Shown here one piece after another: positions 1-52,800 of a DNA stretch of 64,000 nucleotides. The DNA is taken from the IMG/VR virus record IMGVR_UViG_3300034107_000136, positions 1 to 64,000 of that record, one strand, 5' to 3'. The notes under the pieces were generated by a model. It was not told the origin of the DNA. It saw nothing but the letters and a program-made list of their open reading frames with translations, and did no database searches. The DNA is from a virus. Made by a program: the position numbers and the translations under genes. Numbering within the stretch: position 1 is the stretch's first letter; the number at the start of each line of letters is the position of its first letter.

Positions 1-151
1 GATCAAACGCACTGTTGTCACGCTTGAGCGAATGGCACAAGGTATCAAGCACCATGTTAAACATATCCATTGCTGCCTCGCCGTGATAGATGGCATAGTT
101 CCAGTCAATGGCTAGATCGGCTGCCAGAGTTACATAGTCTTTGCGGCTCAT
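1..151 (-). CDS. Small hypothetical protein, runs off the window (MSRKDYVTLAADLAIDW...KRDNSAFD)
   Basis: Manual translation; GAAAGG SD; array promoter at ~191. Confidence 0.8.
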   Translation of the reverse strand, partial: MSRKDYVTLAADLAIDWNYAIYHGEAAMDMFNMVLDTLCHSLKRDNSAFD

Positions 152-223
152 TTTGTGCCTTTCATTAGGTGATGACGTAAGTCTAACACGGGGGTGTGAC
201 ATTGGCCCGGGGCGGGGGGACGC

Positions 224-412
224 CTAAGCGTCCCACCCAAATAGATGACCTTCCATAGCGGCATCCTCAGCAAAGATATCGCCTTGGGGCCAAGGGTCTT
301 CCTGCTCATCAGCATCGGCCTCATCGGACCAAGTGTCCTCAGCGTGATCGCCATAGTCTGCCCACACGTCGGCATCGGCAACGGTTTCGGTATCCCACAG
401 GGTGCTGAACAT
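224..412 (-). CDS. 62-aa highly acidic protein (DNA-mimic candidate)
   Basis: 20 D/E, 0 K/R, 5 W; GAAAGG SD; promoter at ~451. Confidence 0.8.
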   Translation of the reverse strand: MFSTLWDTETVADADVWADYGDHAEDTWSDEADADEQEDPWPQGDIFAEDAAMEGHLFGWDA

Positions 413-562
413 GGTGTTCCTTTCATCGAAGTTAGCGTAAGCGTATCACGAGGGTCTGACATTGCGGCCCGGGCTGTTCGGTGTTCGGTATTGACCGAAC
501 AGCAGAACGGCAGTAAAATACTGGTCCATACATAAAGCGATAATACAAGAAAACACCCGGGC

Positions 563-751
563 CTAGTGCCTCCCGCAATGGGCATGGCCCTTTCGGCACT
601 CAAAGAAATCAGATGAGTAGTCTTCCTCATCAATGCTCTCAGGCATGGTGGCCTCAGCAGGGTAGAGATAGGAGCAACCCTTCTCAGCATAGTTCCAAGC
701 GGAACCGCAGACGCATCCAAACGATGCCTTGTCTAGGTGATGAGCGAACAT
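563..751 (-). CDS. 62-aa Cys/His-rich protein ending DFFECRKGHAHCGRH
   Basis: ATG 751 with CAACGAAAGG SD (the track start at 883 runs through the promoter); C-terminus paralogous to 3366-3476 and 3728-3838. Confidence 0.8.
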   Translation of the reverse strand: MFAHHLDKASFGCVCGSAWNYAEKGCSYLYPAEATMPESIDEEDYSSDFFECRKGHAHCGRH

Positions 752-815
752 TTTGTACCCTTTCGTTGAACGTAACGTAAGCCTATCACAGGGGTCTGAC
801 ATTGGCCCGGGTGGG

Positions 816-974
816 CTATGGTAGCCCCACCTCCTTGGCAAAGGCATACGCCTGCTTATAGGTGGCAAACATACGGATTTCACCCGTGTCCACGTTCATC
901 ACATCCCAAGGGGTTTCAAGCACGAAGCAGCCAAAAGAGACAGCAAGGCCATTGACAGGGACACCGTACCACAT
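816..974 (-). CDS. 52-aa hypothetical (MWYGVPVNG...MFATYKQAYAFAKEVGLP)
   Basis: Manual translation; GGAGG SD; stop next to CCCGGG 806. Confidence 0.7.
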   Translation of the reverse strand: MWYGVPVNGLAVSFGCFVLETPWDVMNVDTGEIRMFATYKQAYAFAKEVGLP

Positions 975-1048
975 AATTCCTCCAAAACTGGGATGCTTAT
1001 GTGGTCATCATAACACGGGGGTCTGACATTGCGGCCCGGGCGGTACTC

Positions 1049-1195
1049 CTAGCGGAGATACCAAGGGTCGTCTTCAGGGGTAGAGGTCACGCGGGTGAGG
1101 CGATTCTCATCAAGGGTATCAAAGTCAAGGTCGGCCATAGCCTGAACGATGGAGAGGAAGTGCTCGTCGTTTGCGTCTGCAAATGTTGTTGTCAT
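1049..1195 (-). CDS. 48-aa acidic leaderless protein (MTTTFADANDEHF...EDDPWYLR)
   Basis: ATG 6 nt after TATGAT; stop before CCCGGG 1035. Confidence 0.7.
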   Translation of the reverse strand: MTTTFADANDEHFLSIVQAMADLDFDTLDENRLTRVTSTPEDDPWYLR

Positions 1196-1277
1196 GGATT
1201 GATCATAGCATTGGGGTCTGACATTGTAAAGTCATAACGTAAGATGGACAGGAGCAAGGGTGCCCGGGGCGTGCTGG

Positions 1278-1460
1278 CTAGTGCCAGCCACAACCGCATA
1301 GGTCATAGTGCTCAGCATAGTGGGCGAGCGAACCCCAGTCAGGGGCAGAGAAGAAATCGGCAGGCGAGGTAGCGCACTGCATGGTAGGCTGGTCCTCGTC
1401 AATGATGGCGAGGTAGCCAAAGTGCTGCACCGTGGCTGCGTGCGCGAGAGTGAAGGTCAT
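1278..1460 (-). CDS. 60-aa hypothetical (MTFTLAHAA...DLCGCGWH)
   Basis: CAACGAAAGG SD; promoter at ~1498. Confidence 0.75.
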   Translation of the reverse strand: MTFTLAHAATVQHFGYLAIIDEDQPTMQCATSPADFFSAPDWGSLAHYAEHYDLCGCGWH

Positions 1461-1564
1461 GGGGGTTCCCTTTCGTTGGTTAGCCATAGCGTACCACGGG
1501 GGTCTGACATTGAGTGGTCTTAACGTAAGCACGCCTCAGAGCAAGCGCCCCGGGCCTAGCAAGT

Positions 1565-1690
1565 CTAAAGATCAGACTTGTCTAGGATCTCATAGTCCTC
1601 AGGGACAGCCTTGGAGTAGACGAACTCCAGAGCAGCGTCACGGCTGCTGAAGGACTTGACGAAGCGGGTCAAGTGGTAGACGCGGTACAT
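1565..1690 (-). CDS. 41-aa hypothetical (MYRVYHLTRFVKSFSSRDAALEFV...)
   Basis: GAAAGG SD; promoter at ~1734. Confidence 0.7.
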   Translation of the reverse strand: MYRVYHLTRFVKSFSSRDAALEFVYSKAVPEDYEILDKSDL

Positions 1691-1761
1691 GGGCGTTCCT
1701 TTCGTAGGTTTCTTATAGCGTAAGCGTACCATAGGGGTCTGACATTACCCGGGCCTTTCGG

Positions 1762-1902
1762 CTACTTGAAAATGGTCCCAGCGGTCAGCATCTCATAGCC
1801 GCAGGTTGAGCAGCGCAGCATGTAGCCCGTGATGAAATTCTCAAGGGTGTGGAAGCAAGAGTCGTTGCCAAGGGACAGGGGCGGGAGCGTCAATGTGATC
1901 AT
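1762..1902 (-). CDS. 46-aa leaderless zinc-ribbon-like peptide (CFH...CSTC)
   Basis: ATG 6 nt after TAGGCT. Confidence 0.7.
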   Translation of the reverse strand: MITLTLPPLSLGNDSCFHTLENFITGYMLRCSTCGYEMLTAGTIFK

Positions 1903-1948
1903 GGCGTAAGCCTATCATAAGGGTCTGACATTGGCTGGCCCGGGCCTC

Positions 1949-2101
1949 CTAGTAGAGGGTTTCAAAGATGCGATAGCCTGAACGATCAGGGAAGGAAATC
2001 TTGTTGGTAGCCAAGGCGTTTTCAGCCTCAGCCCTAGTCTTGAAGGTAGCGTAGTTGGTAGCGTTGGAACGGGGGGACAGGATTTCGTAGATGATGATCA
2101 T
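1949..2101 (-). CDS. 50-aa leaderless protein MIIIYEILSPRSNATNYATF...
   Basis: Paralog of 3019-3165; ATG 7 nt after TAAGGT. Confidence 0.8.
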   Translation of the reverse strand: MIIIYEILSPRSNATNYATFKTRAEAENALATNKISFPDRSGYRIFETLY

Positions 2102-2143
2102 AAGGTATACCTTAGCATAGGGGTCTGACACTGCCCGGGGCAC

Positions 2144-2206
2144 CTAGAACAGGTGAATGTTACTAAGTGCCACCACAACTATGATCACTAGGATAAGGAT
2201 ACGCAC
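2144..2206 (-). CDS. 20-aa hydrophobic peptide (VRILILVIIVVVALSNIHLF)
   Basis: GTG overlaps the upstream TAG; GAGGAGG SD; stop before CCCGGG 2134. Confidence 0.55.
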   Translation of the reverse strand: MRILILVIIVVVALSNIHLF

Positions 2207-2364
2207 TATACCTCCTCAAAATGATAGGTCAGCCAGTCGCGGTCACGGCAGTTCAACTTATTCAGGTGAAGGCCAGCGGCAATCTGAGCACCGCGAAGGG
2301 TGCGGTACTCACCAACGGTGATGACGGGGGCGTGGTGGATGCTGGTGTAAGTAACTTTGATCAT
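2206..2364 (-). CDS. 52-aa leaderless protein (MIKVTYTSIHH...WLTYHFEEV)
   Basis: ATG 6 nt after TAGTCT. Confidence 0.7.
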   Translation of the reverse strand: MIKVTYTSIHHAPVITVGEYRTLRGAQIAAGLHLNKLNCRDRDWLTYHFEEV

Positions 2365-2406
2365 AACGTAAGACTAGCATGGGGGTCTGACATTGACCCG
2401 GGCCTC

Positions 2407-2547
2407 CTACACCTCCATGCATTCGCAGAGGATGCAGATGCCAGTAGCCATCTCCCAGCCCTCTAGGCTATCTTTGCACACCGTGCAGCGTGCGTGGGTG
2501 GTGGGCACAAAATCAGTGTCCATCTCGAAGTCGATGTCAATGCTCAT
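2407..2547 (-). CDS. 46-aa CxxC-CxxC zinc-finger-like peptide (CTVC...CILC)
   Basis: CAACGAAAGG SD; promoter at ~2592. Confidence 0.75.
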   Translation of the reverse strand: MSIDIDFEMDTDFVPTTHARCTVCKDSLEGWEMATGICILCECMEV

Positions 2548-2617
2548 CGGGGCATCCTTTCGTTGGTGTCTTATAACGTAAGACTAGCAGAGGGGTCTGA
2601 CATTCCCGGGTTGCCTC

Positions 2618-2767
2618 CTACCACATCCACCCCGTGTACTTCTCCCAGTCAGCGAGGGTCATGACCCCCTTGTATTCACCGCAGAGGTAGCAGACCTTGC
2701 CGTCAGGCACCACCTCATCGCAGTAGCAGCAAACGAACTCTGGCATCTCAATCTCGGTGATCATCAT
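2618..2767 (-). CDS. 49-aa leaderless CxxC-CxxC peptide (MMITEIEMPEFVCCYC...CYLC...)
   Basis: ATG 6 nt after TACGAT. Confidence 0.75.
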   Translation of the reverse strand: MMITEIEMPEFVCCYCDEVVPDGKVCYLCGEYKGVMTLADWEKYTGWMW

Positions 2768-2773
2768 ACGATG

Positions 2774-2797
2774 ATCGTAGCACAGGGGTCTGACATT
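2774..2797 (-). promoter_or_regulatory. Representative array promoter AATGTCAGACCCCTGTGC-TACGAT (extended -10), leaderless ATG 6 nt downstream
   Basis: Same geometry across the units. -10 variants include TAGACT, TACGAT, TATGAT, TAAGAT, TAGAAT, each preceded by TGn. Confidence 0.8.
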
Positions 2798-2806
2798 GCC
2801 CGGGGC

Positions 2807-2974
2807 CTAGCGCACCTCCCAATCAGAGAGGGGGGCGAGGCGCTCATTGGAATTGAGGTAGAGGTCCATCAACTCCAACTCCATAGGGGTGAGGTAGGGC
2901 ACTGAGAATGAGGGGGGTGCATCCCACGCGGCAGGCATAGCAGGGGCAAGGGCTGGGGTTTCGGTGATCATCAT
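2807..2974 (-). CDS. 55-aa leaderless Pro-rich protein (MMITETPALAP...DWEVR)
   Basis: ATG 6 nt after TACGAT; TAG 2 nt from CCCGGG 2799. Confidence 0.7.
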   Translation of the reverse strand: MMITETPALAPAMPAAWDAPPSFSVPYLTPMELELMDLYLNSNERLAPLSDWEVR

Positions 2975-3018
2975 AGATTGATCGTAGCATAGGGGTCTGA
3001 CAGCCGACCCGGGCCTTT

Positions 3019-3165
3019 CTAGTAGAGGAATTGGAAGATGCGGTAGCCCTGCATCTCTGGGAAGCGGGTAGGGTCAGCCAGAGCAGCCTTGGCCTCAGCC
3101 AGAGTTCTGAAGGTGGCATAGTTGGTAGCCTTGGGACGGGGGGACAGAATCTCGTAGATGATCAT
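3019..3165 (-). CDS. 48-aa leaderless protein MIIYEILSPRPKATNYATF...
   Basis: Paralog of 1949-2101. Confidence 0.8.
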   Translation of the reverse strand: MIIYEILSPRPKATNYATFRTLAEAKAALADPTRFPEMQGYRIFQFLY

Positions 3166-3203
3166 AAGATCATCGTAGCAGAGGGGTCTGACATCGCCCG
3201 GGG

Positions 3204-3323
3204 CTACTCAACGCACCCCCCGCAGTAGTCCCAGAAGCATAGGATGCGGTACTGCTCGCAGATGTAGCAGACACCCATGAGGGGCATAGGGCCAATGACT
3301 GGACGTTCTTTGGAGATGATCAT
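3204..3323 (-). CDS. 39-aa leaderless CxxC-CxxC peptide (CYIC...CGGC)
   Basis: ATG 6 nt after TACGAT. Confidence 0.7.
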   Translation of the reverse strand: MIISKERPVIGPMPLMGVCYICEQYRILCFWDYCGGCVE

Positions 3324-3365
3324 ACGAGCATCGTAGCATGGGGGTGTGACACTGGCCCGGGCCTC

Positions 3366-3476
3366 CTAGTGCCTCGCGCAGAATGCGTGGCCCTTGCGGC
3401 ACTCAAAAAAGTCAGGCGAGTAGTACTCGTCATCAAGGGTAGTAGGGACATGGGCTACGTTCTCATTGATCATCAT
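3366..3476 (-). CDS. 36-aa leaderless peptide ...YYSPDFFECRKGHAFCARH
   Basis: Paralog of 3728-3838 and of the 563-751 C-terminus. Confidence 0.8.
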   Translation of the reverse strand: MMINENVAHVPTTLDDEYYSPDFFECRKGHAFCARH

Positions 3477-3517
3477 AAGAGTATCTTAGCATGGGGGTCT
3501 GACATTGCCCGGGGTGC

Positions 3518-3658
3518 TCAGGTACACATGACGCAGTAGTCGTCACGGTAGGAGCCTACTACCTCAAAGTCACATCCGCAACCTGTGGAGCAATCCGCTG
3601 CGTAGGTGTAGACGGTGTTGAAGGAATGGTCCCAGATGCCGATCTCGGTGATTGTCAT
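3518..3658 (-). CDS. 46-aa leaderless Cys-rich peptide (CSTGCGC...CVMC)
   Basis: ATG 6 nt after TACGCT. Confidence 0.7.
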   Translation of the reverse strand: MTITEIGIWDHSFNTVYTYAADCSTGCGCDFEVVGSYRDDYCVMCT

Positions 3659-3702
3659 AGCGTAAGCGTAGCAGGGGGGTCTGACAATCGACCCGGGCGC
3701 CC

Positions 3703-3729
3703 AAAAGGTGTTGGTACGCAACAACTTTT
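3703..3729. terminator. Inverted repeat AAAAGGTGTTG-gtacg-CAACAACTTTT
   Basis: Overlaps the stop of 3728-3838; near copy at 4074-4100. Confidence 0.5.
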
Positions 3730-3838
3730 AGTGCCTAGCGCAAAAGGCATGACCTTTGCGGCACTCGAAGAAATCAGGAGAGTAGTACTCGTCCTCATCA
3801 AGGGTAGTAGGGGCAACGACTGCGTTTTCTTTGATCAT
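3728..3838 (-). CDS. 36-aa leaderless peptide ...YYSPDFFECRKGHAFCARH
   Basis: Last 21 aa identical to 3366-3476 with synonymous codon differences. Confidence 0.8.
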   Translation of the reverse strand: MIKENAVVAPTTLDEDEYYSPDFFECRKGHAFCARH

Positions 3839-3949
3839 GGATTCATTCTAGCAGGGGGGTCTGACATTTGGGGGGGCATACAGACCTTCTTATGTAACGG
3901 TTGGGTAACGGTTGCCCGGGGCCTGAGGGTGGTCGCCCACCCCTAGGGG

Positions 3950-4030
3950 TTACTCGCTCCACATGCACGCGAGGGCAAAGACGCCGAGGGTGAAGGAAGC
4001 GAGGGCAAGTACCGCAACTGTGATCATCAT
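3950..4030 (-). CDS. 26-aa leaderless single-TM peptide (MMITVAVLALASFTLGVFALACMWSE)
   Basis: ATG 6 nt after TACGAT. Confidence 0.65.
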   Translation of the reverse strand: MMITVAVLALASFTLGVFALACMWSE

Positions 4031-4073
4031 AGATTGATCGTAGCAGAGGGGGCTGACAGTCGGCCCGGGGCCG

Positions 4074-4100
4074 AAAAGTTGTTGGTATGCAACAACTTTT
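4074..4100. terminator. Perfect 11-bp inverted repeat AAAAGTTGTTG-gtatg-CAACAACTTTT
   Basis: Lies downstream (minus strand) of the putative ncRNA. Confidence 0.55.
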
Positions 4101-4312
4101 TGTGTGGCCTGATCTCTAATCAGGTCTAGGTTTATTTGCTCTTGCGAGGCTCACCCTAGAGGTGGTCGATAAGTAGATAGAGAACAGTAACTGGCTGCCA
4201 GAGTTGGTCCTCATCATGAGCCTGACTTTTTGGGAATTGCAAAGGGTGGGGCTGGGGTTGCCAGACGTGTCCTTTGCTCCTGTGGTTCGGTTACTGCTCT
4301 CTATTTACTTAT
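4100..4312 (-). ncRNA. Putative structured non-coding RNA
   Basis: Promoter TTGCAT-17-CATAAT with the TGTCAGAC box in its spacer; 23-bp inverted repeat 4290-4312 / 4169-4191; internal stems; no SD-led or leaderless ORF. Confidence 0.6.
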
Positions 4313-4427
4313 AGAACTATTATGACATAGGCGTCTGACAGATGCAAGTTTTGGAGGGTTTTTCGGGATGATTAGAATCACATCGTAGGTACTTGACAAA
4401 TGGCTGCTGGAGGCCCGGGGCACCTCC

Positions 4428-4496
4428 CTAGAAGAGATGAACTTGCGTGGCAATAAGAAAAACCGTTGCTACGCAAAGGGTTATCGCTGCCCACAT
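4428..4496 (-). CDS. 22-aa hydrophobic peptide (MWAAITLCVATVFLIATQVHLF)
   Basis: GGAGG SD; second cistron after 4499-4693; ends HLF like 2144-2206. Confidence 0.55.
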   Translation of the reverse strand: MWAAITLCVATVFLIATQVHLF

Positions 4497-4498
4497 GC

Positions 4499-4693
4499 TC
4501 AACCTCCGAGGGTAGAGAGGTGAGCAACAATAGCACGACCATTGTCAGTACGTCGCTTGAATCCTGTAGACCCTTGCTCACCATACTGAATGTCATAGTA
4601 CTTATCTGCAAGCATGGCTACCCCGAAGGTAGAGAGCCAAGACAGTGCAAAGACAATAAGGGCAAAGAGCGAAACACCTGTATAGACGTTCAT
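4499..4693 (-). CDS. 64-aa protein with N-terminal TM helix
   Basis: CAACGAAAGG SD; promoter at ~4733. Confidence 0.75.
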   Translation of the reverse strand: MNVYTGVSLFALIVFALSWLSTFGVAMLADKYYDIQYGEQGSTGFKRRTDNGRAIVAHLSTLGG

Positions 4694-4747
4694 GATGTGC
4701 CTTTCGTTGTTGTTATGGTGCTAGCCTAGCAGGGGGGTGTGACACTC

Positions 4748-4897
4748 CTAGTGGAGGGGCCATTCCTCAATCATGAAACCCTCACTGCTATAGATTTCCT
4801 CTGAGGCTATAGCCTGCTCCATCCATGCTTGGGCTACCTCGCGTGATGCGAACATACGGATGGGGCCATCCCACATTTCAGATACTGAGTAGATCAT
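4748..4897 (-). CDS. 49-aa hypothetical (MIYSVSEMWDGPIRMFASREVAQAW...)
   Basis: CAACGAAAGG SD; promoter at ~4943. Confidence 0.75.
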   Translation of the reverse strand: MIYSVSEMWDGPIRMFASREVAQAWMEQAIASEEIYSSEGFMIEEWPLH

Positions 4898-4958
4898 TGT
4901 CTTGCCTTTCGTTGATTGCTTATTAGTTAGAGTCTAGCAGTAGGGTGTGACAGTGAGG

Positions 4959-5087
4959 CTAGCGGGTAGCCTGTGAGCACCAAGCGCACACACCATGTGC
5001 GTCAGTACGATGCCAGCCGCTAGGGGCTACCGTGCAAGCGACACCCTTCGGTGCGGTGCGGGCCTCAAGTGCGAACGATGAAATCAT
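4959..5087 (-). CDS. 42-aa Cys/His peptide (C..H..H..CAWC)
   Basis: CAACGAAAGG SD; promoter at ~5140. Confidence 0.7.
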   Translation of the reverse strand: MISSFALEARTAPKGVACTVAPSGWHRTDAHGVCAWCSQATR

Positions 5088-5338
5088 TTTCTTGCCTTTC
5101 GTTGTGTTTCCGTTTTTCCTTATGACGAAAGTCTAGCACGGGGGTCTGACACTTTTGACCATTTCAGGGCTTATTTTGAAATTCTTTTTTGTGGGCTACA
5201 TCACATGTGTGCGGTCTATTTTGGGCTTGACATTGCTTCAAAAGTGCGTATCGTACACCTCTAACATAAATTGTACTTTTAAAATATTTAAAGTTTAAAA
5301 TTTAATAAATCAAAATATATATATGGTATAATTTTAAA

Positions 5339-5887
5339 ATGAAGCAATGTACAAAATGTAATGAAATGAAGCAAATAGATCAATTTGCAAAAAATAAAAG
5401 TAATAAGTCAGGTATCCACTCTTGGTGCAAATTATGCATGACAGAAAAAGTATTGGGGTATCGCGGAGGCAGGGTATTCAAGAAATTGACAGAAACAGAA
5501 TCACATAAACAATGTAGGTTATGTGAAAAAATGAAACTATATTCAGAGTTTGCAACCAAGGATAGTCGTACAACAAAAACTGAGACATATTGCAAGCAAT
5601 GTAAAAAGTTTATGGGTACAGAAAAGGTGTTATCAAAATATGGGTTGAATGTTATCTCGTACATGGAAATGTTTAATGCTCAAGATGGCGTATGCGTAAT
5701 ATGCAAAAAACCTGAAAACAATGGAAAAAGACTGTCTGTCGATCATGATCATTTATGTTGTTCGGGAGCATACAGTTGTGGCAAATGCATTAGAGGACTA
5801 CTTTGTAGCAGATGCAATAAAACTCTTGGCATGGTACAAGACAACCCTGATTATCTTAATGCAATGATTGAGTATCTATCTAAATAA
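5339..5887 (+). CDS. Endonuclease VII-family nuclease with N-terminal Cys-rich repeats
   Basis: QDGVCVIC...LSVDHDH...IRGLLCSRCNKTLG motif. Confidence 0.85.
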   Translation: MKQCTKCNEMKQIDQFAKNKSNKSGIHSWCKLCMTEKVLGYRGGRVFKKLTETESHKQCRLCEKMKLYSEFATKDSRTTKTETYCKQCKKFMGTEKVLSKYGLNVISYMEMFNAQDGVCVICKKPENNGKRLSVDHDHLCCSGAYSCGKCIRGLLCSRCNKTLGMVQDNPDYLNAMIEYLSK

Positions 5888-6311: not shown

Positions 6312-6794
6312 ATGGCGATAGACTTTCCTGCATCACCGACATTGAATGATTTGTTTGGTGCTGACGATAAGTTGTGGCAGTGGGATGGTGTGGCGTGGAA
6401 TGGTATTCCTGGTCAATGGGATGGGGTTACTGGATTAGACACAATAAACATAGCACAGAATCAAGTAACTGGGCTGACGACATCATTATCTGGGCTGACA
6501 ACATCACTATCTGGCAAGGCAAGTACGACACATGCTGCAAGCCATGCAAGTGGTGGGAGTGATGCTATTACTATTTCTGCTTCTCAAGTAACGGGGACGG
6601 CCATTATAAGTGGCGATACTCATTTAATTACTTTTTGTACGTCGTCTACTCGTCCATCACCAGAAACTGATGGGCAGATAATCTATGAAACTGATACTCA
6701 GAAGTATTATGGATGGAATGGAACTATTTGGTCTGCCATTGGTGGTAGTGGTGATGGTGACTATACCCAAGCATTTTTCATGGGTGGAATCTGA
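6312..6794 (+). CDS. Virion appendage adaptor-like protein
   Basis: MAIDFPASP start, WQWDG motif, C-terminus FFMGGI; TGATATAAT 6 nt upstream. Confidence 0.7.
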   Translation: MAIDFPASPTLNDLFGADDKLWQWDGVAWNGIPGQWDGVTGLDTINIAQNQVTGLTTSLSGLTTSLSGKASTTHAASHASGGSDAITISASQVTGTAIISGDTHLITFCTSSTRPSPETDGQIIYETDTQKYYGWNGTIWSAIGGSGDGDYTQAFFMGGI

Positions 6795-21895: not shown

Positions 21896-22534
21896 ATGAG
21901 CACATTAAGGACAATCAACCTACAACATCCTACAGCAGCAACTGCTAATATTACCTTGTCAAATACGGGGGGTATAGCATTAAATGGATCTGTATCAGGT
22001 GGAGGTATGGATCTCATTACCCCGACATCGGTCGCGGGGTCAGGGGTCACCCTGTCCGGTGGTCAGGTGACGTTCACTGCGGCAGCCACCGTCAGCGTGA
22101 ACGGATGCTTCACGAGCGCATACGCAAATTATCTAGTCCTTTTGCATCAATCGGCTAGAAGCGCTGCTAGCGGCACCTTGGTCAGAATGCGTGCTGCGGG
22201 GTCTGACACCTCTAGCAGCACATATGGTTACTCCCAACTTAGGTTTGGTAGATCGGCTTTCATTGTTGACGGAAGTGCAGGAACTACCACGTCTTTTACG
22301 GTTGGTTACGGTGCCACGGGAAACACTGAGTACAGGATTATGCAATTTCTTAATGCCGCGGTAAGCGCCCAAGCCGCCTTTGACTGCTCAGCCTTTACAA
22401 CTGACTCCGGGAATCTTGGTTATCAGGTAAGCGGTATTTGCACGCAAGCCACCGCTCATGATGGCTTCACATATTACCCAGCGTCTGGCAACGTCACAGG
22501 AACACTGCGCGTTTACGGAATGAGGAACTCATGA
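21896..22534 (+). CDS. Fibre/receptor-binding-like protein
   Basis: MDLITPTSV...GTLRVYG; paralog of 20551. Confidence 0.65.
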   Translation: MSTLRTINLQHPTAATANITLSNTGGIALNGSVSGGGMDLITPTSVAGSGVTLSGGQVTFTAAATVSVNGCFTSAYANYLVLLHQSARSAASGTLVRMRAAGSDTSSSTYGYSQLRFGRSAFIVDGSAGTTTSFTVGYGATGNTEYRIMQFLNAAVSAQAAFDCSAFTTDSGNLGYQVSGICTQATAHDGFTYYPASGNVTGTLRVYGMRNS

Positions 22535-43815: not shown

Positions 43816-46800
43816 ATGGCAGATGTAAATGCAATCATTAATATAGACATTAACTCGTCTTCTGCATTGGTAAATCTTAAAAGACTTGAATCGCAGATAG
43901 ATCAGTTTAATCGGTCTGTATCAACAAGCAATGCAACGGCTGCTGCATCACAACAAAGTTTAAATAGAGCACTTCTTGATGGCATAAATAACACTGGATT
44001 ATTTACTTCAAAGATTATTCCAGTTGAATCATCAATGAAAAGATTTTCAAGATCTTTAGATGAGGGTCGTTTATCTCTTGGAGAGTATACAAGATACGCT
44101 GGATCTCAATTACCTGGATTAAGCAAGGTGTTTAGAAAAGAATTTGACTCCATTGAACAAGTTGCCACATCTAGAGTTAAATCAATGCAGACTCAATATC
44201 TTGCCCTTGGTAAAACGGTAGATGGAGTTACAAGAGCAATCTCTTCAACTCCAACTGGATTAGCAAAAGGTATGGCTACAGACTTAGCCATGACTCAACA
44301 ACGACAACAAATATTCAATAAATTACTTGATGATGGTTCTACTAAGTTGTTGAACTGGGGTAAAAATACTCAATGGGCTGGTCGTCAGTTGATGGTTGGC
44401 TTTAGCCTTCCCCTTGCTGCATTTGGCGCTGCCGCTGCCAAAACATTCATGGAAATTGACAAAGCAACTATTTCACTTAAAAGAGTTTATGGAGACTTAA
44501 GCACAACAAAAGAAGAGTTAGATTCAAATGTTGAGGCAGTAAAAGGTCTTGGAAAAGAATATACTAAATACGGTATAACACTAGCAGAAACAATATCCTT
44601 GTCTGGACGTGCGGCAGCCACTGGTGCAACAAATGAAAAACTTATGGCTGCAACTGAACAGACACTAAGATTTGCAACACTTGGTCAAATGGACTACAAT
44701 CAAGCACTTGATACAACAATTTCTCTTCAAACTGCATTTGCAATTTCCAATGAAGATCTTGGGAAAACTGTAGATTACCTTAACGCTGTAGAAAACCAAA
44801 CAATTCTTACAATGGAAGACATGTCTGTTGCTATTCCAAGAGTTGCCACGGTAGTCAAGGGACTTGGGGGTAGTGTACAAGATTTAGCAGTAATGATGAC
44901 AGCAATGCGTGAAGGTGGAGTAAGCGCAGAGAATGCTGCAAACGGTTTGAAGTCAGGTCTTGCATCTTTGATTAATCCAACAAAGAGGGCATCTGAAAGT
45001 TTGGCTGATATGGGTGTCAATCTCAAAGGCATCATTAATCAAAATAAGGGTGACCTTATGGGTATCGTTACTGAATTTGGAACGGCAATAAATAAACTAG
45101 ATGAATTTAGTCGTCAACAGGTTCTTGAGCAGGTATTCGGTAAATTTCAGTATGCAAGAATGAGCGCATTATTTACTAATATTACAAAAGATGCTGGACA
45201 AGCAGCAAGAGCAATGGATCTTGCTGGAATGTCAGCAGAAGATCTTGCAAAGATTTCTGAAAAAGAACTTGGACAGATATCAGAATCAACATCTGTAAAG
45301 TTTCAAGCATCAATGGAAAAACTTAAAATTTCCATCGCACCTATTGGAGAGGCATTCTTAAAAGGAATCACTCCAGTAGTCGATATGGTTTCAAAAATTG
45401 CTGATGCATTTAATAATCTTCCAGATGGGGTAAAAAATGCAATAGCAGTTCTTACGGGCGTGGTTGCAGGAATAGGCCCAGTACTCCTTATGACCATTGG
45501 TTTGTTAGGTAACGGTATAGCAAACATAACAAAATTTGTTCAATTTATTAGAAAAAGTTTGGCTGGCATCAAGGGTGATGCATCAGCATTCACTTATTTA
45601 GCACAAGGAGAACTTGAAGCAGTAACAGCAAGCAAGGCGCTTGAAGGTAGTGCTGTTAATCTTACAGATAAATTACTTCTTCAAAGGGGAGCAGTAGTTG
45701 GTCTTACAGCAGAATACGAAAGATTTGCTCGTGCCGCAGGAATTGCTAGAGCAGAAATGGGACTAGTAAGTGGAGCGCCCATGCCCAGTGGTGGAGGTAG
45801 GCAAGCAATACCAGTACCAAGAATACGCAAAAATACAGGTGGAACAATTCCAGGTGTTGGAAGCACAGACACAGTTCCTGCAATGCTTACGCCTGGTGAA
45901 TTTGTAATTAACAAAAAAGCAACTGCTCAAAACCTTCCACTGCTTCATGCAATAAATGATGGAAAAGGAATGGGAGGATTTAATAAGGGTGGGCAGATTC
46001 CTGGGGTACAGTATTTTGCAATGGCAGGAAAAGTTCTTCCAAAACCCAAAAATGTAACTGTTCCTAAAGGTACGCAATCACCACAAATGACACATACAAC
46101 ACCAAAACCTATTTTATCAACAATTGGCACAGCAATGCCACAAAGAATTCTTGGTTCAGCAAGAGGAAGAGTTGCTCAGAGATTGGCTAATGCTGGAATT
46201 CCAGTTGAGTTATTAACTGATGCATGGATAAGAAGTCCATTTAATCAAAAACTTAAATCTAAAGTGCAAGGCTCAACAATAACTGATTGGGTAGAAGATT
46301 TAAAAGATAGTCAACTTGGTCCAGCGTACAGAAGAGCAGAAATAAGAGCGAGTGATTTAAGAGAAGAACTAAGAGGTAGTTTTCTTTCTGAAAACACTTA
46401 TACTCAAGAGGATTTTGGAAATATAATAGAAGATGCTGCTAAAAGAATAAAACCAAGTTTTAGTCCAGCAATAGATTCTGCATATTTACCAAAACCAGAA
46501 GTTTTAAGAGAATATTCAGAGCAACTTGAGAGTGCTGGATTTTATTTACAAAAAAATGAAGCCAACGGTAAGAATTACATTGTAGATAGCACAGAAGTAG
46601 AAAAAAGACAAATGGCTTCTTCCTCATACCCTTTAACAAGAAATAAAGGTGGTTTAATTCCTGGTGGAGAAGTAACACAAAGTAGACCATTCTATGGAGT
46701 GTTCAATGCAAAAACAATTGATATGTTTAAGAATTGGATAGGAACTCATTCTGAAGCAATTCCTGCACTTAGACAAACGATATTAAAAGATCCTAAAATG

Positions 46801-49800
46801 AAGTCAATGTTTGGTTCAGCATTTTTAAAAAGTAAAGAACCAGAAACATTACTTCGTTCTCAATTTATGTCATCTGTACCAGAGATTGGTTCTGAATTAT
46901 CTTTAGGAGCGTTAAGGTCTTTTTCTGCCGAAGGTACTGATGTAGTGAGACACCTAGCAGATAGTAAAATAAGAAAGGAGGCTGAAAAAGCATCTTATGA
47001 GTTAGGTGTAGATCAAAAGAGACAAAAAAGAGATGCAGCAAGATTAAGAAAGGCAGAAACTGTTGGACTACCATCTTGGTCACCAGAACATAAATATCGT
47101 AGTCCAGTTGGTGGAGCAACTGGAATAGATGCGTGGATGGAAGATACTAGACGATCAATTGAACAAGGAAAAGCAGGTATTAAAAAAAGCAAATCAAAGA
47201 TAAGGGATTACAGGAAATTAAATCCAACCATCATTAGATTAAAAACTCCTGCTGGAACAATTCGTGCAAATCTTGATGATATTGTTCCACAAATTGAGCA
47301 GCAGTATGGAACTTCAGGTTCGTCTTATCAAGTTCAAGAACAAGAAAGAATTCTTAATAACGCAAGAATAAAAGTAAGTGGTAAGTCAACAGATAAAAAT
47401 GGAATTACCACTTTAGATGCTGAATTGATAGAATCCTTTGGATTAAATAAGGGTGGAACAATTCCAGGATCAGGAAATACAGATACAGTTCCAGCAATGC
47501 TTACACCAGGAGAATTTGTAGTAAATAAAAAAGCAACACAATCTAATATTGATCTATTACATGCAATCAACAGTAATGGCGATTCTCAATCAATGAAAAA
47601 ATTTAACAAGGGTGGAATGATTGGTGACGTTCAATATTTTGCAGAGGGTGGTGAGGCTCAATCAGATAGAGGTAGTGCATCTGGATCTGGGGCATACAAA
47701 GCAGAAACAAGAAGAGTTATGGCTGTTGGTTGGGACAGTCTACAAACAGAATTAGACATTTTAAAAGAAATGAAAAAAAATAATGAACTTAATGAAACTC
47801 AAGTTAAAGCATTTTCTCAAGGAGAAACATCCCATATAACTCCAGAAGTTGGTCCAAATGGAGGAAAGATGTGGAGGCCATCAAATATGATGGCAGACTT
47901 GGGATTAATCAATAATTACATTGAAGCACAAAAAGGTACATCTAAAAAAGCATTAGGAAATGCTAAATTGTTTGATGAAATTCAAAGCAAAACAAGTCTT
48001 TCCGCAGAACGTTTGCGTGCAGAATTAGACTTACTTTCACGAGGATTCCATGCAACAACAAAAGAATCTGCTATGGCATTACGAGCACTCTCTCAAGTTG
48101 GTGATCAAACCGGACAAAAAATAGCAGTTAGTAGAGTTTTAGATGCTAGATTACAGGGAACATTCTATGACACCTTAAATGCACCAGAAAGACAATACCG
48201 TTCAGACCTTCCAGTAGAAGAAAAATTTGGCAAGCGTAGTAAGCGTAGTAAGCCTGATAGAAACATTCCTCAGCCTGAAACTAGAGATCCAATGCGTCCA
48301 CCAAAGTTATCAGCACAAGAAGCGGATAAAATTAAAAGAAACGCAGAAAGAGAAGCAAGGTCTAGTCTTGGAATAGCACCGCACAGAGGATTTAGTGCAA
48401 GTCAAGGTGGAGGAGGGTATGATCAAAACGATATATTCATTCCTCAACAAGTTATAGATGAGGAATCTAAAAAAATAAGAACTAGAGAGTATGACAAAAG
48501 AAATAAGGAGCATGGAAGAGAACAAGCAAGATTAATTGCAGCATCAAAACAAAGCGAAATGAATCAGCCAACTCCACCAACTCCACCAACTCCACCAGAA
48601 ATAGATGCAGATAAGCAAGGTAAAAGAGCAAAAATGGGTAGAGGAATGGCAAAGGCTGGTGGTGTCATAGGAATGGCATCCATGCTTCCCTTTATGATGC
48701 AAGATCAAGAAGGTAAGTTTATGGGCATGGATGCAAACATGCTTGGCATGGGAATGATGGGTGCAGGAATGGCTATGCCAGCAATAGGAAGTGCTATGAG
48801 TGCAGGTGGTGGTGCTGGAATGCTTGCAGGAGGTGGTGTGCTTGCAACCCTTGCTCCAGTGTTAGCCCCACTCGCTGCTGCCGCTGCTGTTGCTGGCGTT
48901 GGCTTGATGTTGTGGAGAAAAAACATTGATGAGACTTCTAAAGAAACATCTAAGTTAGCATCTAATGTTGGAGTAACAGCAAACTCTTTAGGAGAAGTAT
49001 CAAAAATATTAGGAGTCTCAACTCCATCTCAAAGACAAGCCCAAATGAACTTAGGAATAACAAAAGAAGATATTCAAAATCAAGAAATAATTTCTCCAAT
49101 TCTTCAAAGTGAAGGTGGTCAAAAGTTTATTGAAGAATTAAAAACTGCAACATCTGAAGAAAGATTTAAGAAATTAGCAGATTACACTAAAGCGGCTATT
49201 GCCTCAGGAATGATGGACAAGTCAATGGCTTCAACATTTGCTAAGGGGGTCAGCCTTTCATTAAACGATGTTCTTCTTGGAAGAAGAATGATGCCAGTTA
49301 TATCTGGTCAAAAGATTGGCAGTGGTGGAATGATGTCCATAGCAGATGAAAGAATTTCTGCTCTTAATAAATCCTCAGAAATAAAAAGAGTTGCAGCAGC
49401 AAGCGGAGAATCTCGAACTATCACAACTGCTGACGCGGCCTATACAGTAGGAGCAACAACTCAAGTAATATCTGATCTTTCTAATGTTATTGCTTTGGCT
49501 AGAGAGGAGTACGATAAGGGAACAATATCATTTGAAAAGATGAGATCAACAGTAGACAAGGCAACTGCTTCTCAGAATGAATACAGCAGTATGCTTACAA
49601 AAGCAATTTCTGGGTCTATGGAGCAAGGTGGAACCAGACAAGCACTTAATGATGCTCTTGTCACTATGGGTGTTGATCCAGAAAAAATATCAACATTTAA
49701 GAATGCTATGGATATAGGTGTGGGCGGTCTTGGAGTAAGTGCTTTTCAACAAGAACAAACAAAAAGAATTTTGACAGAAAAGGGAATGTCTGGAAACATA

Positions 49801-52800
49801 GTTACTAATCCAAATGCAATCGGCAGTAGTAGAAGTGCGGCATATGGTGCAAGATTCTCTAATTTAACTGGAAGCACAAAATCTTTTGAAAATTATCAAG
49901 CAGCAAAAGATCAAGCAGCAAAAGATGAAAGTGCCATTGTAAATGCTCAAACTTCAGGATTAGCAGAGCAATTACTTCAAGCCGTTGCTGCTAATAAGAT
50001 TACAATAGATCAAGCAAATTTAATTTCAGAACAAGTAAAAACTGGATCAAAATTTGGAATGGATCTTGTTCGTGAGTTTAATGCAGGAGCAAAAGATTTA
50101 GGAGGAACCTTAAATGCATTATTTGTAGCCTCATCAAGAACAGCAGATATTGCTGGAGTTAGCGATGCTAAGGTTATGGGAATTTCACAAAAAGATAGGT
50201 ATATTTCCGCTGGTGCAGCATTTGGACGTAAAGGTGGAGATGTTGATCAGTATGCTGCTTTAATTGAAAGCATTCCTTCACAAAAAAGAATAGACATAAT
50301 TACAACATTTAACGGATTGACATATGAGCAACAATCAAAGCAAATAGCAGATATGACTCAGTTATCGGCAATTGGTGGAGCAGAAAATACTGGAAAACTT
50401 CAATCCTCAGATTTTTATCAAGGACAACTAAAAGCAGGGAAAACTGGAGGAATTGTTGATAGAGCGAAGGGTGCCGCTGCCGCAGGAGTTGGAGAAGATT
50501 ACCTAAATGTAATGGCTACCATTTCAGCAGAAGACAACGGTGTTCCTATTTCATCAAAAGAATATAACTCTAGATCTAAGTTAGTTTTGAAATCATTAAA
50601 AGATTTTAGTTCTAATGACAAAATAAAAAAACAAGAGGCTGGAATAGTTTTACTACAGCAAATTGAAAATCCAGATGGTAAAAAAATAACAGCGGCTGAA
50701 GCAGAAAAAGGAATGCAAGACTTGATGAAAAAATTTGGAAAAGGAAAGACATTAAATCTTCCACCCACAATATTTAGAAAAGTTATAATTTTACAATCAA
50801 AGATCCTAGGACTACAACAAATGATAGATGCAAAAAGACTAGCACTATCAACTGCTAGCGGCGAGGGGGCACGAGATTTAAGGTTATCACTTAGAGCAGA
50901 CGAAAACCAACAAGTTGGAATTGATGAACAAATTTTATCTGAGTATAATCAATCAGGAGTTACTGGTGGTGGAGATGGAGAAGGAAGCAAAGATGGTGGT
51001 GGAGGTGGATCAAAAGCCAATCCCCTACTAGACTTAAAAAAATCTATTCTTGATCAAATTAAAATGTATGTTGATATCAATGCAACAATGAAAAAACTGA
51101 ATGATCAAAAATATAAGTTTTCAGATATGATATCAGGCAAGGGTGGAGTGCTTAACAGACTGCGAGGATTAAAAGGTAATGCTGGGGGTCTTAGTGATTC
51201 AGTCATTGATGCTATTTCAGGTATGGGTCCAGATGCAGCAAAGAAATGGATTGAAAAAAATACTAAGGGTGGAAAACTTACCAAAGAAGGACAAAATCAA
51301 GCGGATCTTTTAAATTCAGGTAAAATTAGGGGAACCATAGAAGGTAATCTTGCAGAATTTAGAGGAGCAAGAGCACAAAGAAAAGCATACAGAAACCTCA
51401 GGGGTAGAGGATTAGATAATTCTGTAGTTCAAGCAATTGCAGGAGATCCAGAAAAAGCAAAAGAACTTGAGGTTCTTCAAGCAAGAGTAAATGCTGGAAT
51501 AAAGAAATCAGTAAAGGACATGAATGCCTTTATTAATTCACAAATAAAGGCAACTAAGGAGGCAGAACTTCTTGCAAGAGCACAAGATCCTCTTCAAACT
51601 AAAATAGACGATTTAACAATGGCACATAGAATAGACAGTGTAGTAATTAATAAACAAATTAAAATATATGAAGATCAAATTACTGCAATAAATAAAGAAA
51701 TAACTGCGATACAAGAGTTAAATTCTAAGGATCAAAATAGAATTAGAGATCTTGATCGTCAAAAAGAAATTATTAATCGTCAGATTGAAATACTTAATCG
51801 TGCAAACGAATTAGATCAAAGAAGAGCAGATGCATTAAGAAGAGAAGATGATATAAGAAATAGAGCAGCAGATTCTTTAAATCATGAATTAGATATTATG
51901 TCTAAGCAAGAACAAAAAATACAAGATGCATACAATAAAAGAATTAAGGCTCTTGACGAAGTTGCAAAGATTAATGACTACATCATTAATCAACAAAAGA
52001 GCCAACTTGGATTAGCCGATGCATTGAGTCGTGGAGACATTTCAGCAGCAGTATCAGTGCAGCAAGATATGCAAGCAGGCAATGCTCAATTTGCTACTGA
52101 GCAAATGCGCTCTGGCCTTCAAACTGGGGTAGACAATCAAATTGCAGGCTTAACAACTACTGGTGGATTAACTAGAGATCAAGCAGAAGCACAAATTTCT
52201 GCTATCAAAGAGCAGTCATATCAAACAAGTTTATTAATTCGTGATATTGAAGATGCAATTTATCAAAGAAACCTTCAAATGATTCCATTAAAAGATAGTC
52301 AATTAGTAATTGATAATCAAATTAGAGTTATTCAAGATGCAATGTATGTCAGAGAAACAAGTATTATTGAAATACAAAATGGTAAACTTGCTAATGCACA
52401 GAAGCAACTAGACAAAGAATTAGAAATTAAAACAGCCTTAGACGATAAGTTCAATAGCCAAGTGGCAGATTATGAATTACAAAAAGATATAGTAGACATG
52501 ATTGACGCACAAAGCACTGCTGTTGCACAACTTTCACGACATTACGAAGTTATTGCCAATCAAATTGATAATATTAATAAACTTGCTGCTAAAGCAACAA
52601 GTGAAATTAAAAAGCCAATAGAGAAGACAAATGAAACAGAAACAGACTTTAATGAAAGATATAAAAGATATGAAGATAGGATCTCTGCAATTGAAGCAAA
52701 AAGAGCAGCAGATGCGGCAGCAGTAGTAGCATCAATGACTCCAGTAAATAAGGCTGTTGGAGGATTGATTGGAGATGGAGCAAGAGATTCAATTCCTGCC

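Follow-up and report, generated by a model that had tools for sequence, protein, structure and literature searches.

A tandem array of promoter and micro-gene units with PafBC-like promoter geometry in an uncultured lake phage

Near a genome end, Bacillus phage SPO1 has a host-takeover module in which some two dozen small early genes are accompanied by numerous strong promoters; these genes are grouped into operons, with sigma-A promoters of the canonical type and strong ribosome-binding sites, and to our knowledge neither a junction palindrome nor unit shuffling has been described for it. Integrons hold rows of promoterless cassettes that share the promoter Pc, together with IntI and attC/attI sites. 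In T4-type phages, promoter-early stem-loop (PeSL) regulatory cassettes have been described (PMC2839356, PMC4122927). PafBC-dependent promoters of actinobacteria (RecA-NDp, recA P1-type) are read by sigma adaptation (PMC8635444, PMC5656591, PMC11804915), in which PafBC, once activated by ssDNA, takes a place between sigma domain 4 and the DNA and works with RNA polymerase and sigma-A. Their motif is tGTCgg(N10)tA(N3)T, its 5' part lying at -23 to -28 and a -35 element being absent (PMC8635444), or in another version tTGTCRgtg-8nt-TAnnnT (PMC5656591).

An uncultured lake phage of 102 kb (record 101.7 kb) has at its left end at least 23 tiny genes in a row, with one promoter copy each; the window analysed here is the first 64,000 nucleotides of that record. 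As judged by organization, the PeSL cassettes, one of the analogues named in the first-pass annotation, are closest to it: in both, a variable region holds small orphan genes flanked by a short conserved promoter element, and this element bounds insertions, deletions and replacements between close relatives. The lake phage array differs in its promoter class, in having a 6-10-bp palindrome without a loop instead of a terminator stem-loop, and in its mostly leaderless units. Terminator-like matches were no more numerous than in shuffles, and the only one at a unit junction was a weak hairpin over the CCCGGG at 556; 11-bp hairpins occur twice, only after U04 and U06. With the SPO1 module the array shares a small-gene block with many promoters near a genome end, but it has per-unit promoters, a junction palindrome and unit shuffling.

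The array also resembles integron arrays in that it lines up unrelated small genes between conserved borders and that relatives differ cassette by cassette. However, it lies on a lytic-type phage, each unit has its own promoter, and the stop-to-box junctions are mostly 10-25 nt long, compared with about 57-141 bp for attC. The junctions contain no attC-like imperfect palindrome and no inverted repeat of at least 12 within 40 nt, and the 101.7-kb record, from which about 6% of the genome is missing, has no match to tyrosine or serine recombinases (PF00589, PF00239). An integron cassette array, the other analogue suggested at first pass, was therefore rejected. The accompanying remark that no integrase or recombinase is visible holds for these two enzyme classes but is misleading, because the array's divergent neighbour (5339-5887, plus strand) encodes an endonuclease VII-like protein whose N-terminus has a Lar-like zinc ribbon (phrog_2633, E = 6.5e-35), and genes for a UvsX/RecA-like recombinase, a Cas4-like exonuclease, a RuvC-like resolvase and SSB lie just beyond the window.

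Anatomy of the array

The array occupies positions 1-5160 on the minus strand, its units being numbered from the 5151 end (U01) towards the contig end (U23), and an AT-rich divergent intergenic region (5161-5338) separates it from the rightward genes, with a flank conserved in contigs L115, L233 and L255. With up to two mismatches, TGTCAGACCCC has 28 matches in the window, compared with 12.5 +/- 3.6 in shuffles, and none of 100 shuffles reached 28. Among these matches, 23 are minus-strand copies within 191-5151; they have the form TGTCA[G/C]ACCCC and are all followed after 2 nt by TGnTAnnnT. The sole other exact copy in the window, at 22198(-), lacks a -10 element and seems to be a chance match; the box has no copies in the 64-101.7 kb part of the record.

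U01 (4959-5151, box 5151-5141) and U02 (4748-4952, box 4952-4942) have SD leaders and ORFs of 42 aa (5087-4959) and 49 aa (4897-4748), with 93% and 100% amino acid identity in L115, respectively. U03 (4428-4744, box 4744-4734) carries a 64-aa membrane-like ORF (4693-4499) and the 22-aa hydrophobic ORF U03b (4496-4428). U04 (4060-4340, box 4340-4330), which is missing from L115, is predicted to specify a structured RNA (about 4312-4060; -85.8 kcal/mol, z = -6.6) closed by a long stem and followed by an 11-bp hairpin (4074-4100), and an Rfam family search with it returned no match. The next eight units are leaderless: U05 (3950-4058, box 4058-4048; 26-aa hydrophobic ORF, 4030-3950), U06 (3728-3866, box 3866-3856; 36 aa, ..YYSPDFFECRKGHAFCARH family), U07 (3518-3686, box 3686-3676; 46 aa, Cys-rich), U08 (3366-3504, box 3504-3494; 36 aa, U06 paralog), U09 (3204-3351, box 3351-3341; 39 aa, CxxC..CxxC), U10 (3019-3193, box 3193-3183; 48 aa, U15 paralog), U11 (2807-3002, box 3002-2992; 55 aa) and U12 (2618-2795, box 2795-2785; 49 aa, CCYC..CYLC, zinc-ribbon-like). 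U13 (2407-2602, box 2602-2592) has an SD leader and a 46-aa CxxC..CxxC ORF. Leaderless ORFs recur in U14 (2144-2392, box 2392-2382; 52 aa, with the 20-aa hydrophobic U14b), U15 (1949-2130, box 2130-2120; 50 aa, at +29), U16 (1762-1930, box 1930-1920; 46 aa) and U19 (1049-1223, box 1223-1213; 48 aa, acidic). SD leaders precede the ORFs of U17 (1565-1744, box 1744-1734; 41 aa), U18 (1278-1509, box 1509-1499; 60 aa, 100% amino acid identity and one synonymous change in L115), U20 (816-1028, box 1028-1018; 52 aa), U21 (563-801, box 801-791; 62 aa, C-terminus of the U06 family), U22 (224-461, box 461-451; 62 aa, very acidic, 412-224) and U23 (1-201, box 201-191), whose ORF (151-1) is cut by the contig end and has 77 aa in L115.

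In total there are 24 micro-ORFs, comprising 22 first ORFs of 26-64 aa and two second ORFs of 20-22 aa (U03b, U14b), and related cargo recurs at non-adjacent positions (U06/U08/U21, U10/U15 and U03b/U14b). Between the window and L115, 605 codons were compared: differences at codon positions 1, 2 and 3 numbered 25, 20 and 53, and 40 codons differed synonymously versus 37 non-synonymously. The micro-ORFs are coding and under purifying selection. The micro-proteins, putative early host-takeover or anti-defence peptides in the first-pass reading, gave zero family matches in searches against PHROG and Pfam. U12 alone among the cargo has distant homologs, namely ORFs of 37-56% identity on more than 12 further contigs that bear the promoter, and in a large protein index it had only relatives of at least 80% identity. 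The first-pass description of self-contained promoter and micro-gene units, with 23 boxes, 24 micro-ORFs, one non-coding unit and scattered paralogs, was thus reproduced, every unit having a promoter. Its extent of 23 units in 1-5160 is right for the boxes but truncated at position 1, beyond which the array continues in lake contigs; the sister contig L115 has 26 boxes.

The junctions recur every 150-400 bp in the order stop codon, CCCGGG, short spacer, box and -10 element. Stop codons are mostly TAG (19/23) and in 14 units lie 1-10 nt before CCCGGG. This hexamer, weakly extended to G[G/C]CCCGGGC[C/A], occurs 21 times in 206-4419, starting at 206, 468, 556, 806, 1035, 1263, 1549, 1748, 1939, 2134, 2397, 2605, 2799, 3008, 3197, 3356, 3508, 3692, 3915, 4064 and 4414; 16 copies lie 2-8 nt and five lie 46-90 nt upstream of a box. 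Two more copies (100951 and 101015), at the record's far right end in the same leftward module, form unit borders before a different promoter type. The hexamer is absent from the 95 kb between the array and these copies and from 511 kb of relatives. The array is distinctive in four ways: its density, its GC-rich composition (GC3 0.66 versus 0.26), its leaderless design and its CCCGGG delimiter.

Promoter geometry, host and relatives

The pattern TGTCA[G/C]-N10-TAnnnT fits all 23 boxes, with a spacing to the -10 element of exactly 10 bp. In 12 of the 23 units the ATG lies precisely at +28, from which a box position of -28 to -23 follows; in one unit it lies at +29. Among 188 distinct promoters from other phage contigs, 72% have A at +28 and 74% a pyrimidine at +27. 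No -35 element was apparent: relatives show zero conservation upstream of -31, and the distance to CCCGGG is variable. Canonical sigma-70-like promoter matches numbered six, compared with 4.7 in shuffles, and only one fell on a unit promoter (U19).

When bacterial genomes were scanned with the phage motif, many Actinomycetota matched, several of them next to LexA-box-like sites or immediately 5' of radA-like genes that are leaderless. In a survey of 30 radA genes from one actinobacterial order, run without imposing the phage motif, 24 had nGTCnn-N10-TAnnnT followed 4-8 nt on by ATG or GTG. The phage promoters thus share with PafBC promoters TGTC[A/G]G at -28 to -23, the 10-bp spacing, TAnnnT, the lack of a -35 element and an often leaderless start codon 6 nt past the -10 element, as at host radA. 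Judged by its sequence core and geometry, the box is the '-26 element' of PafBC/RecA-NDp promoters. The identity of the geometry is an observed result, whereas PafBC dependence, the start site, the timing, the recombination mechanism and the functions of the peptides are inferred. In contrast to host promoters, the phage copies stand in at least 23 tandem copies with the element extended to an invariant 11-mer, and all have the TG extended -10 motif that radA lacks; they may fire without an activator.

The record encodes a WhiB protein (79304-79480, 40 bits) and a portal 45% identical to Streptomyces phage portals, and its habitat is lake water; the host is assumed to be a freshwater actinobacterium with PafBC. 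Searches revealed neither a sigma factor of phage origin nor a T7-type RNA polymerase nor a WYL protein. The scan of related phage contigs proposed at first pass was productive: the number of viral contigs with the promoter exceeds 120. Each complete relative has 10 copies, all on the same strand and within a single block of 7-10 kb, and reversed-pattern controls gave 0-1. The promoter is therefore a feature common to a large lake-phage group and not special to this array.

Unit turnover at the junctions

Shuffling of units had been predicted from the window, and the comparison with relatives agrees. The unit order differs among the window, L115 and a third lineage, and assembled contigs from four lake metagenomes, together with the sister contig, showed whole-unit deletions, insertions and cargo swaps with edges in the CCCGGG/box junction. 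In run X16, U07 is deleted exactly from the CCCGGG at 3508 to that at 3692; the whole of U20 is deleted between 806 and 1035 in runs X2, X16 and X21; and in run X21, 165 other bases stand in place of the U11 cargo. U15 is absent from this place in L115, and the indel is flanked on both sides by CCCGGG. Among the 15 joints listed, 11 have an end within 5 nt of CCCGGG, and windows of this kind cover 6% of the stretch; some joints instead lie in the -10 element, the start codon or the box. In four independent deletions both ends are at CCCGGG, and only 6-8 letters are shared. These results support cassette-like turnover. Joints of this last kind, which share CCCGGG and not the longer box, are unlike the prediction of simple homologous recombination.

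Interpretation

TGnTAnnnT by itself can drive transcription in actinobacteria, and it is present in all copies. The units could then have ordinary extended -10 sigma-A promoters, the box being an inherited repeat or upstream enhancer that resembles the PafBC element by coincidence. We consider this very unlikely, because selection holds the box invariant across phages with unalignable flanks, its core, position and spacing equal those of the published motif (PMC8635444, PMC5656591), and a chance match of six informative bases at a fixed distance is improbable. The 11-mer is far stricter than host PafBC sites, in which only GTC is near-invariant, so a different or additional reader is possible. 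A phage protein, perhaps one of the conserved zinc-ribbon micro-proteins or an unrecognised helix-turn-helix protein, might read TGTCAGACCCC and adapt sigma-A with the same geometry, making host PafBC unnecessary. Across more than 180 promoters from diverged phages the 11-mer hardly varies over its full length, PafBC specificity is mainly for GTC (PMC8635444), exact copies are rare in candidate host genomes (1-6), and the phage encodes a WhiB-like sigma-4 binder. Such a reader nevertheless seems unlikely: genes for the WYL, sigma and polymerase classes were not found, the factor would have to be injected or made before the first promoter fires, and the match to host radA in core, spacing and leaderless distance would be left as coincidence.

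An enzyme that cuts and rejoins at a CCCGGG crossover core, giving an integron-like outcome without integron parts, would explain why the four deletions and the U15 indel end in CCCGGG on both sides although the longer box adjoins, why the hexamer is confined to the array and the right-end units, where it borders another promoter type, and why an endonuclease VII-like gene lies next door. We regard this as quite unlikely, given that no integrase, resolvase or transposase was found in the record, that some joints lie elsewhere, that resolution is weak, with one or two distinguishing bases at each junction, and that low-GC relatives hold similar micro-gene blocks without CCCGGG. Equally improbable in our judgement is a combination in which CCCGGG is the core of a new kind of cassette exchange, recombinase-independent or run by an unrecognised enzyme, that builds and reshuffles a library of leaderless, self-expressing micro-genes, all fired by the host PafBC ssDNA alarm at phage sensing.

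The explanation that we hold to be probable is that PafBC-type promoters drive the micro-genes and that the conserved junction serves as a recombination scaffold for unit turnover; the GC3 difference, the TAG stops and the purpose of CCCGGG are not accounted for by it. Each unit promoter would be a hybrid of the '-26 element' (TGTCAG at -28 to -23, extended to the 11-mer) and the extended -10 TGnTAnnnT without a -35 element, the added TG probably giving some basal activity. Transcription would start at +28, the A of the start codon in 12 units, to give leaderless mRNA. Because a leaderless gene is translated only from its own 5' end, each such micro-gene would need its own promoter. At the repeated junction units would be deleted, duplicated, moved and replaced, most likely by the phage's own homologous-recombination proteins. 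The array would represent the densest part of a leftward-transcribed micro-gene block in a siphophage of lytic type that infects a freshwater actinobacterium, and through it the phage may plug this gene block into the ssDNA/DNA-damage switch of its host or a functional equivalent.

Organization and coding content of the array

The leftward array at window 1-5160 is a minus-strand row of units numbered from U01 (the 5151 end) to U23 (the contig end). It contains 23 copies of the 11-mer box TGTCA(G/C)ACCCC between 191 and 5151, all on the minus strand and each followed 2 nt later by an extended -10 element, TGnTAnnnT. The whole 64-kb window holds 28 box matches with up to 2 mismatches, compared with 12.5 +/- 3.6 in shuffled sequences, and no shuffle reached 28; the box at 22198(-) has no -10 element and was ruled out as a promoter. 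Units are 150-400 bp long and carry one ORF of 26-64 aa, with a second, hydrophobic ORF of 20-22 aa in two of them. U04 has a strongly folded RNA (z = -6.6) instead of an ORF, for which the Rfam search yielded no family and one sub-threshold chance match. The row of 23 promoter boxes with micro-ORFs and a single non-coding unit described in the first-pass annotation is thus confirmed. The leftward block also includes the right end of the record (101709-100367, minus strand), therefore the array is truncated by the contig end, and contigs from lakes extend beyond window position 1. The sister contig L115 has 26 boxes. An assembly chimera was ruled out because the junction between array and flank also occurs in L115, in L233 and L255 of a third lineage and in several long lake contigs. 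The long U21-U22 spacer, which contains two CCCGGG sites, also holds a perfect inverted repeat, TGTTCGG-N6-CCGAACA, at window 478-500, followed by a third CCGAACA.

The main collinear blocks of the window and L115 share 91-95% DNA identity. Over 605 aligned codons, positions 1, 2 and 3 had 25, 20 and 53 differences, and 40 codon changes were synonymous versus 37 non-synonymous; this comparison indicates that the micro-ORFs are genes. Identity between the two genomes is a mosaic, in which U02, U18 and U20 have 100% protein identity and some units show no differences at all while U12 reaches only ~83%, pointing to unit exchange between lineages. PHROG and Pfam scans of 19 micro-proteins returned no family match. 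The products include several CxxC...CxxC peptides and several single hydrophobic helices, and a ...YYSPDFFECRKGH.FC.RH terminus is common to three of them. U12 is the only cargo with distant homologs (37-56% identity), which occur in more than 12 other contigs with the same promoter; the protein index search found only relatives of U12 at >=80% identity, and the protein atlas search with U21 gave no usable match. Composition sets the array apart, with an overall GC of 54% in 1-5160 versus 38% in 11336-63751, and a GC3 of 0.66 in array genes versus 0.26 in nine large phage genes from the latter region; TAG is the stop codon in 19/23 cases. The GC3 and TAG bias may come from import from a GC-richer phage with the same promoter, such as contig L049, from selection on codons, or from a recombination hot spot with GC-biased gene conversion.

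A PafBC-like promoter with predicted leaderless starts

The box promoter was found in at least 120 viral contigs, many of them ~100 kb long with 36-40% GC, where the consensus reads aaaTGTCAGACCCC-nn-TG-n-TAnaaT, then an A-rich leader, GAAAGG and ATG. In each of two near-complete relatives, 10 promoters lie on a single strand within one 7-10-kb block, compared with 0-1 for the reversed control pattern. The low-GC relative L040 contains five consecutive ~200-bp units, two of them leaderless at +28 (counted from the first T of the box) and none with CCCGGG; at ~6370-6405 of its reverse complement, a tRNA-like 3' end (GGTTCGAATCC) stands directly before a promoter box.

Scanning bacterial genomes with the phage motif gave many Actinomycetota among the matches. 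Several of these lie immediately upstream of leaderless radA-like genes and others beside LexA-box-like palindromes. Candidate genomes contain just 1-6 copies each of the exact 11-mer, which rules it out as a common host promoter. A RecA-independent DNA-damage promoter has been described as tTGTCRgtg-8 nt-TAnnnT (PMC5656591). PafBC, the actinobacterial DNA-damage activator, recognizes tGTCgg(N10)tA(N3)T, the 5' part lying at -23 to -28 with no -35 element; in this 'sigma adaptation', RNA polymerase with sigma-A reads the promoter while PafBC sits between sigma domain 4 and the DNA (PMC8635444). Single-stranded DNA switches PafBC on (PMC11804915). The phage element TGTCAG-N10-TAnnnT matches the published core and spacing. 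In 12/23 units, an ATG follows the first T of the box at exactly 28 nt, 6 nt past the -10 element, so that the box would occupy -28 to -23 if the A of this ATG is the start site. Among 188 promoters in other contigs, 72% have A at +28 and 74% a pyrimidine at +27. As an unbiased control, radA was fetched from 30 genomes of one actinobacterial order, and 24/30 had nGTCnn-N10-TAnnnT followed by ATG or GTG after 4-8 nt. These host promoters have the same geometry as the phage promoters, but they lack the TG motif and their N10 is variable. The searchable literature yielded no phage described with PafBC-type promoters, and the literal box motif matched only unrelated primers. On sequence grounds, we interpret the array as regulatory cassettes built on a PafBC-type promoter and resembling the promoter-early stem-loop (PeSL) cassettes of T4-type phages.

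Leaderless mRNAs are translated from a 5'-terminal AUG in mycobacteria and other bacteria. Leaderless units account for 52% of the array versus ~4% of promoters in the relatives, and the remaining array units have AACGAAAGG leaders. The leaderless units (window 1049-4030) open with ATGATGATCAC or ATGATCA, encoding peptides that begin MMIT.., MII.. or MIK.., and these starts supply the 12 TGATCA sites of the array. Because the starts are shared, the conserved stretch spans CCCGGG to about +10. A leaderless gene internal to a read-through transcript would have no ribosome-binding site, therefore the 12-13 leaderless units would each need a start site of their own. This logic offers a simple reason for having one promoter per micro-gene.

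Unit turnover and the CCCGGG hexamer

Unit order was compared as strings in which a letter is a cargo cluster and a dot a cargo found in that genome alone. The window reads B C.. D A E A F G. H I J K L M N. O A P Q, and L115 reads B. C. A. K G. H I J L M N. O A P Q, then six further units; the third lineage (L233/L255/L207/L190) begins directly with D-type units. Blocks of homology between genomes start at CCCGGG and stop just past the next box. The window has U15 between U14 and U16, and L115 lacks it there; at this indel, the bases preceding CCCGGG belong with the left-hand neighbour and the spacer behind CCCGGG with the right-hand one. Contigs from four lake metagenomes provided natural variants of the array. 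Four whole-unit deletions, 804>1035 (three runs), 3195>3507, 3507>3692 and 3920>4424, have both ends in CCCGGG with just 6-8 shared letters, so they cannot be k = 31 assembly collapses. Two cargo replacements, 2798>2981 (165 nt for 182) and 3364>3473, span CCCGGG to the -10 element or start codon, and U01-U02 are deleted in lake contigs (4744>5192). An end within 5 nt of CCCGGG was seen for 11/15 listed joints, with such windows making up 6% of the stretch. Some boxes are preceded by a CTTACGTTA(A/T)GAC-like sequence and not by CCCGGG (window 1263-1300 and 1549-1590; L115 5051-5095, 6030-6077 and 7864-7906). This sequence is the -10-to-start segment of other units and looks like the remnant of a promoter into which another unit has inserted.

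The array holds 21 CCCGGG sites, each between a stop codon and the following box at a variable distance from it. The far right end of the record has two more, and the intervening 95 kb has none. A weak extension gives G(G/C)CCCGGGC(C/A), and the hexamer is too short for a hairpin or terminator. The right-end sites open two tandem ~64-bp units (100920-101020 of the record, minus strand, outside the window) before a 179-aa gene, where a different, AT-rich promoter-like sequence (..TTTTAAGAATGCCGAAA..) follows. Since it precedes another promoter type there, CCCGGG marks borders independently of the PafBC-type box. CCCGGG is clearly under selection. Candidate roles are a crossover site and a place where a dimeric protein docks to act as insulator, shut-off or roadblock. 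In 511 kb of low-GC relatives, CCCGGG occurs 0 times versus 25 expected from composition. Its avoidance in the phage body was ruled out as a special signal because many 6-bp palindromes are equally absent: record positions 5301-100300 contain no GGATCC (13-18 expected), no CTGCAG (13-28 expected), two CCATGG (13-15 expected) and no CTCGAG, GTCGAC or GGGCCC. The missing palindromes indicate strong restriction-site avoidance.

The first-pass annotation had proposed a shufflable library likened to both integron cassettes and PeSL elements. Shuffling at unit borders is supported, as relatives differ in unit order and breakpoints fall mostly at CCCGGG; the integron side of the comparison is not, as no integrase, resolvase or attC-like structure was found. 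A site-specific mechanism driving unit exchange is improbable; what speaks for it is the preference of crossovers for CCCGGG over the longer box, which junction recombination does not account for. In PeSL cassettes, recombination between repeated junctions has been shown (PMC2839356), and turnover of the array would proceed in the same way. The phage encodes a UvsX/RecA-like recombinase, a Cas4-like exonuclease, a RuvC-like resolvase and an SSB, and a gene for an endonuclease VII-like protein adjoins the array. Recombination between repeated junctions is the simplest account of the turnover.

The phage, its host and implications

The record is a linear virus of 101,709 bp, estimated to be 94% complete, from lake water, and the stretch is present in 22 runs. 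It is a siphovirus with genes including portal, protease, capsid protein, ribonucleotide reductase and DnaB-like helicase. The tape measure protein (window 43816-53106) has 3096 aa, well above the usual size; an N4-like virion RNA polymerase with hairpin promoters was ruled out because this ORF is the tape measure protein. The portal shares 45% identity with its counterparts in Streptomyces cluster BE-type phages. Streptomyces phage BoomerJR, the closest cultured relative by portal, has no promoters of the box type, and neither the array nor the promoter of a relative gave a usable match in nucleotide searches of GenBank phages. Searches of the phage's genes for a sigma factor, a T7-type polymerase and a WYL protein found none, and a phage-borne PafBC was ruled out by the lack of a WYL domain. 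A WhiB-like gene (79304-79480 of the record, plus strand, outside the window; PF02467, 40 bits) is present, a family that to our knowledge is confined to actinobacteria and their phages. The surface bound by WhiB proteins, sigma-A domain 4, is used by PafC too, and the phage WhiB could turn transcription away from the array later in infection.

If PafBC drives the units, an abundant group of lake phages would time a gene block by the host's own ssDNA sensor, a counterpart of T4 sigma appropriation without need for a phage factor. The promoter could also serve as a cheap marker of an Actinomycetota host for uncultured phage contigs. Together with its natural variants, the array offers a collection of over 40 orphan peptides (20-64 aa), many of them rich in Cys or membrane-like, which can be screened in laboratory actinobacteria for toxicity, polymerase binding and anti-defence activity. 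Unit polymorphism in the wild, bounded by CCCGGG, provides a natural test of small-gene shuffling by phages.
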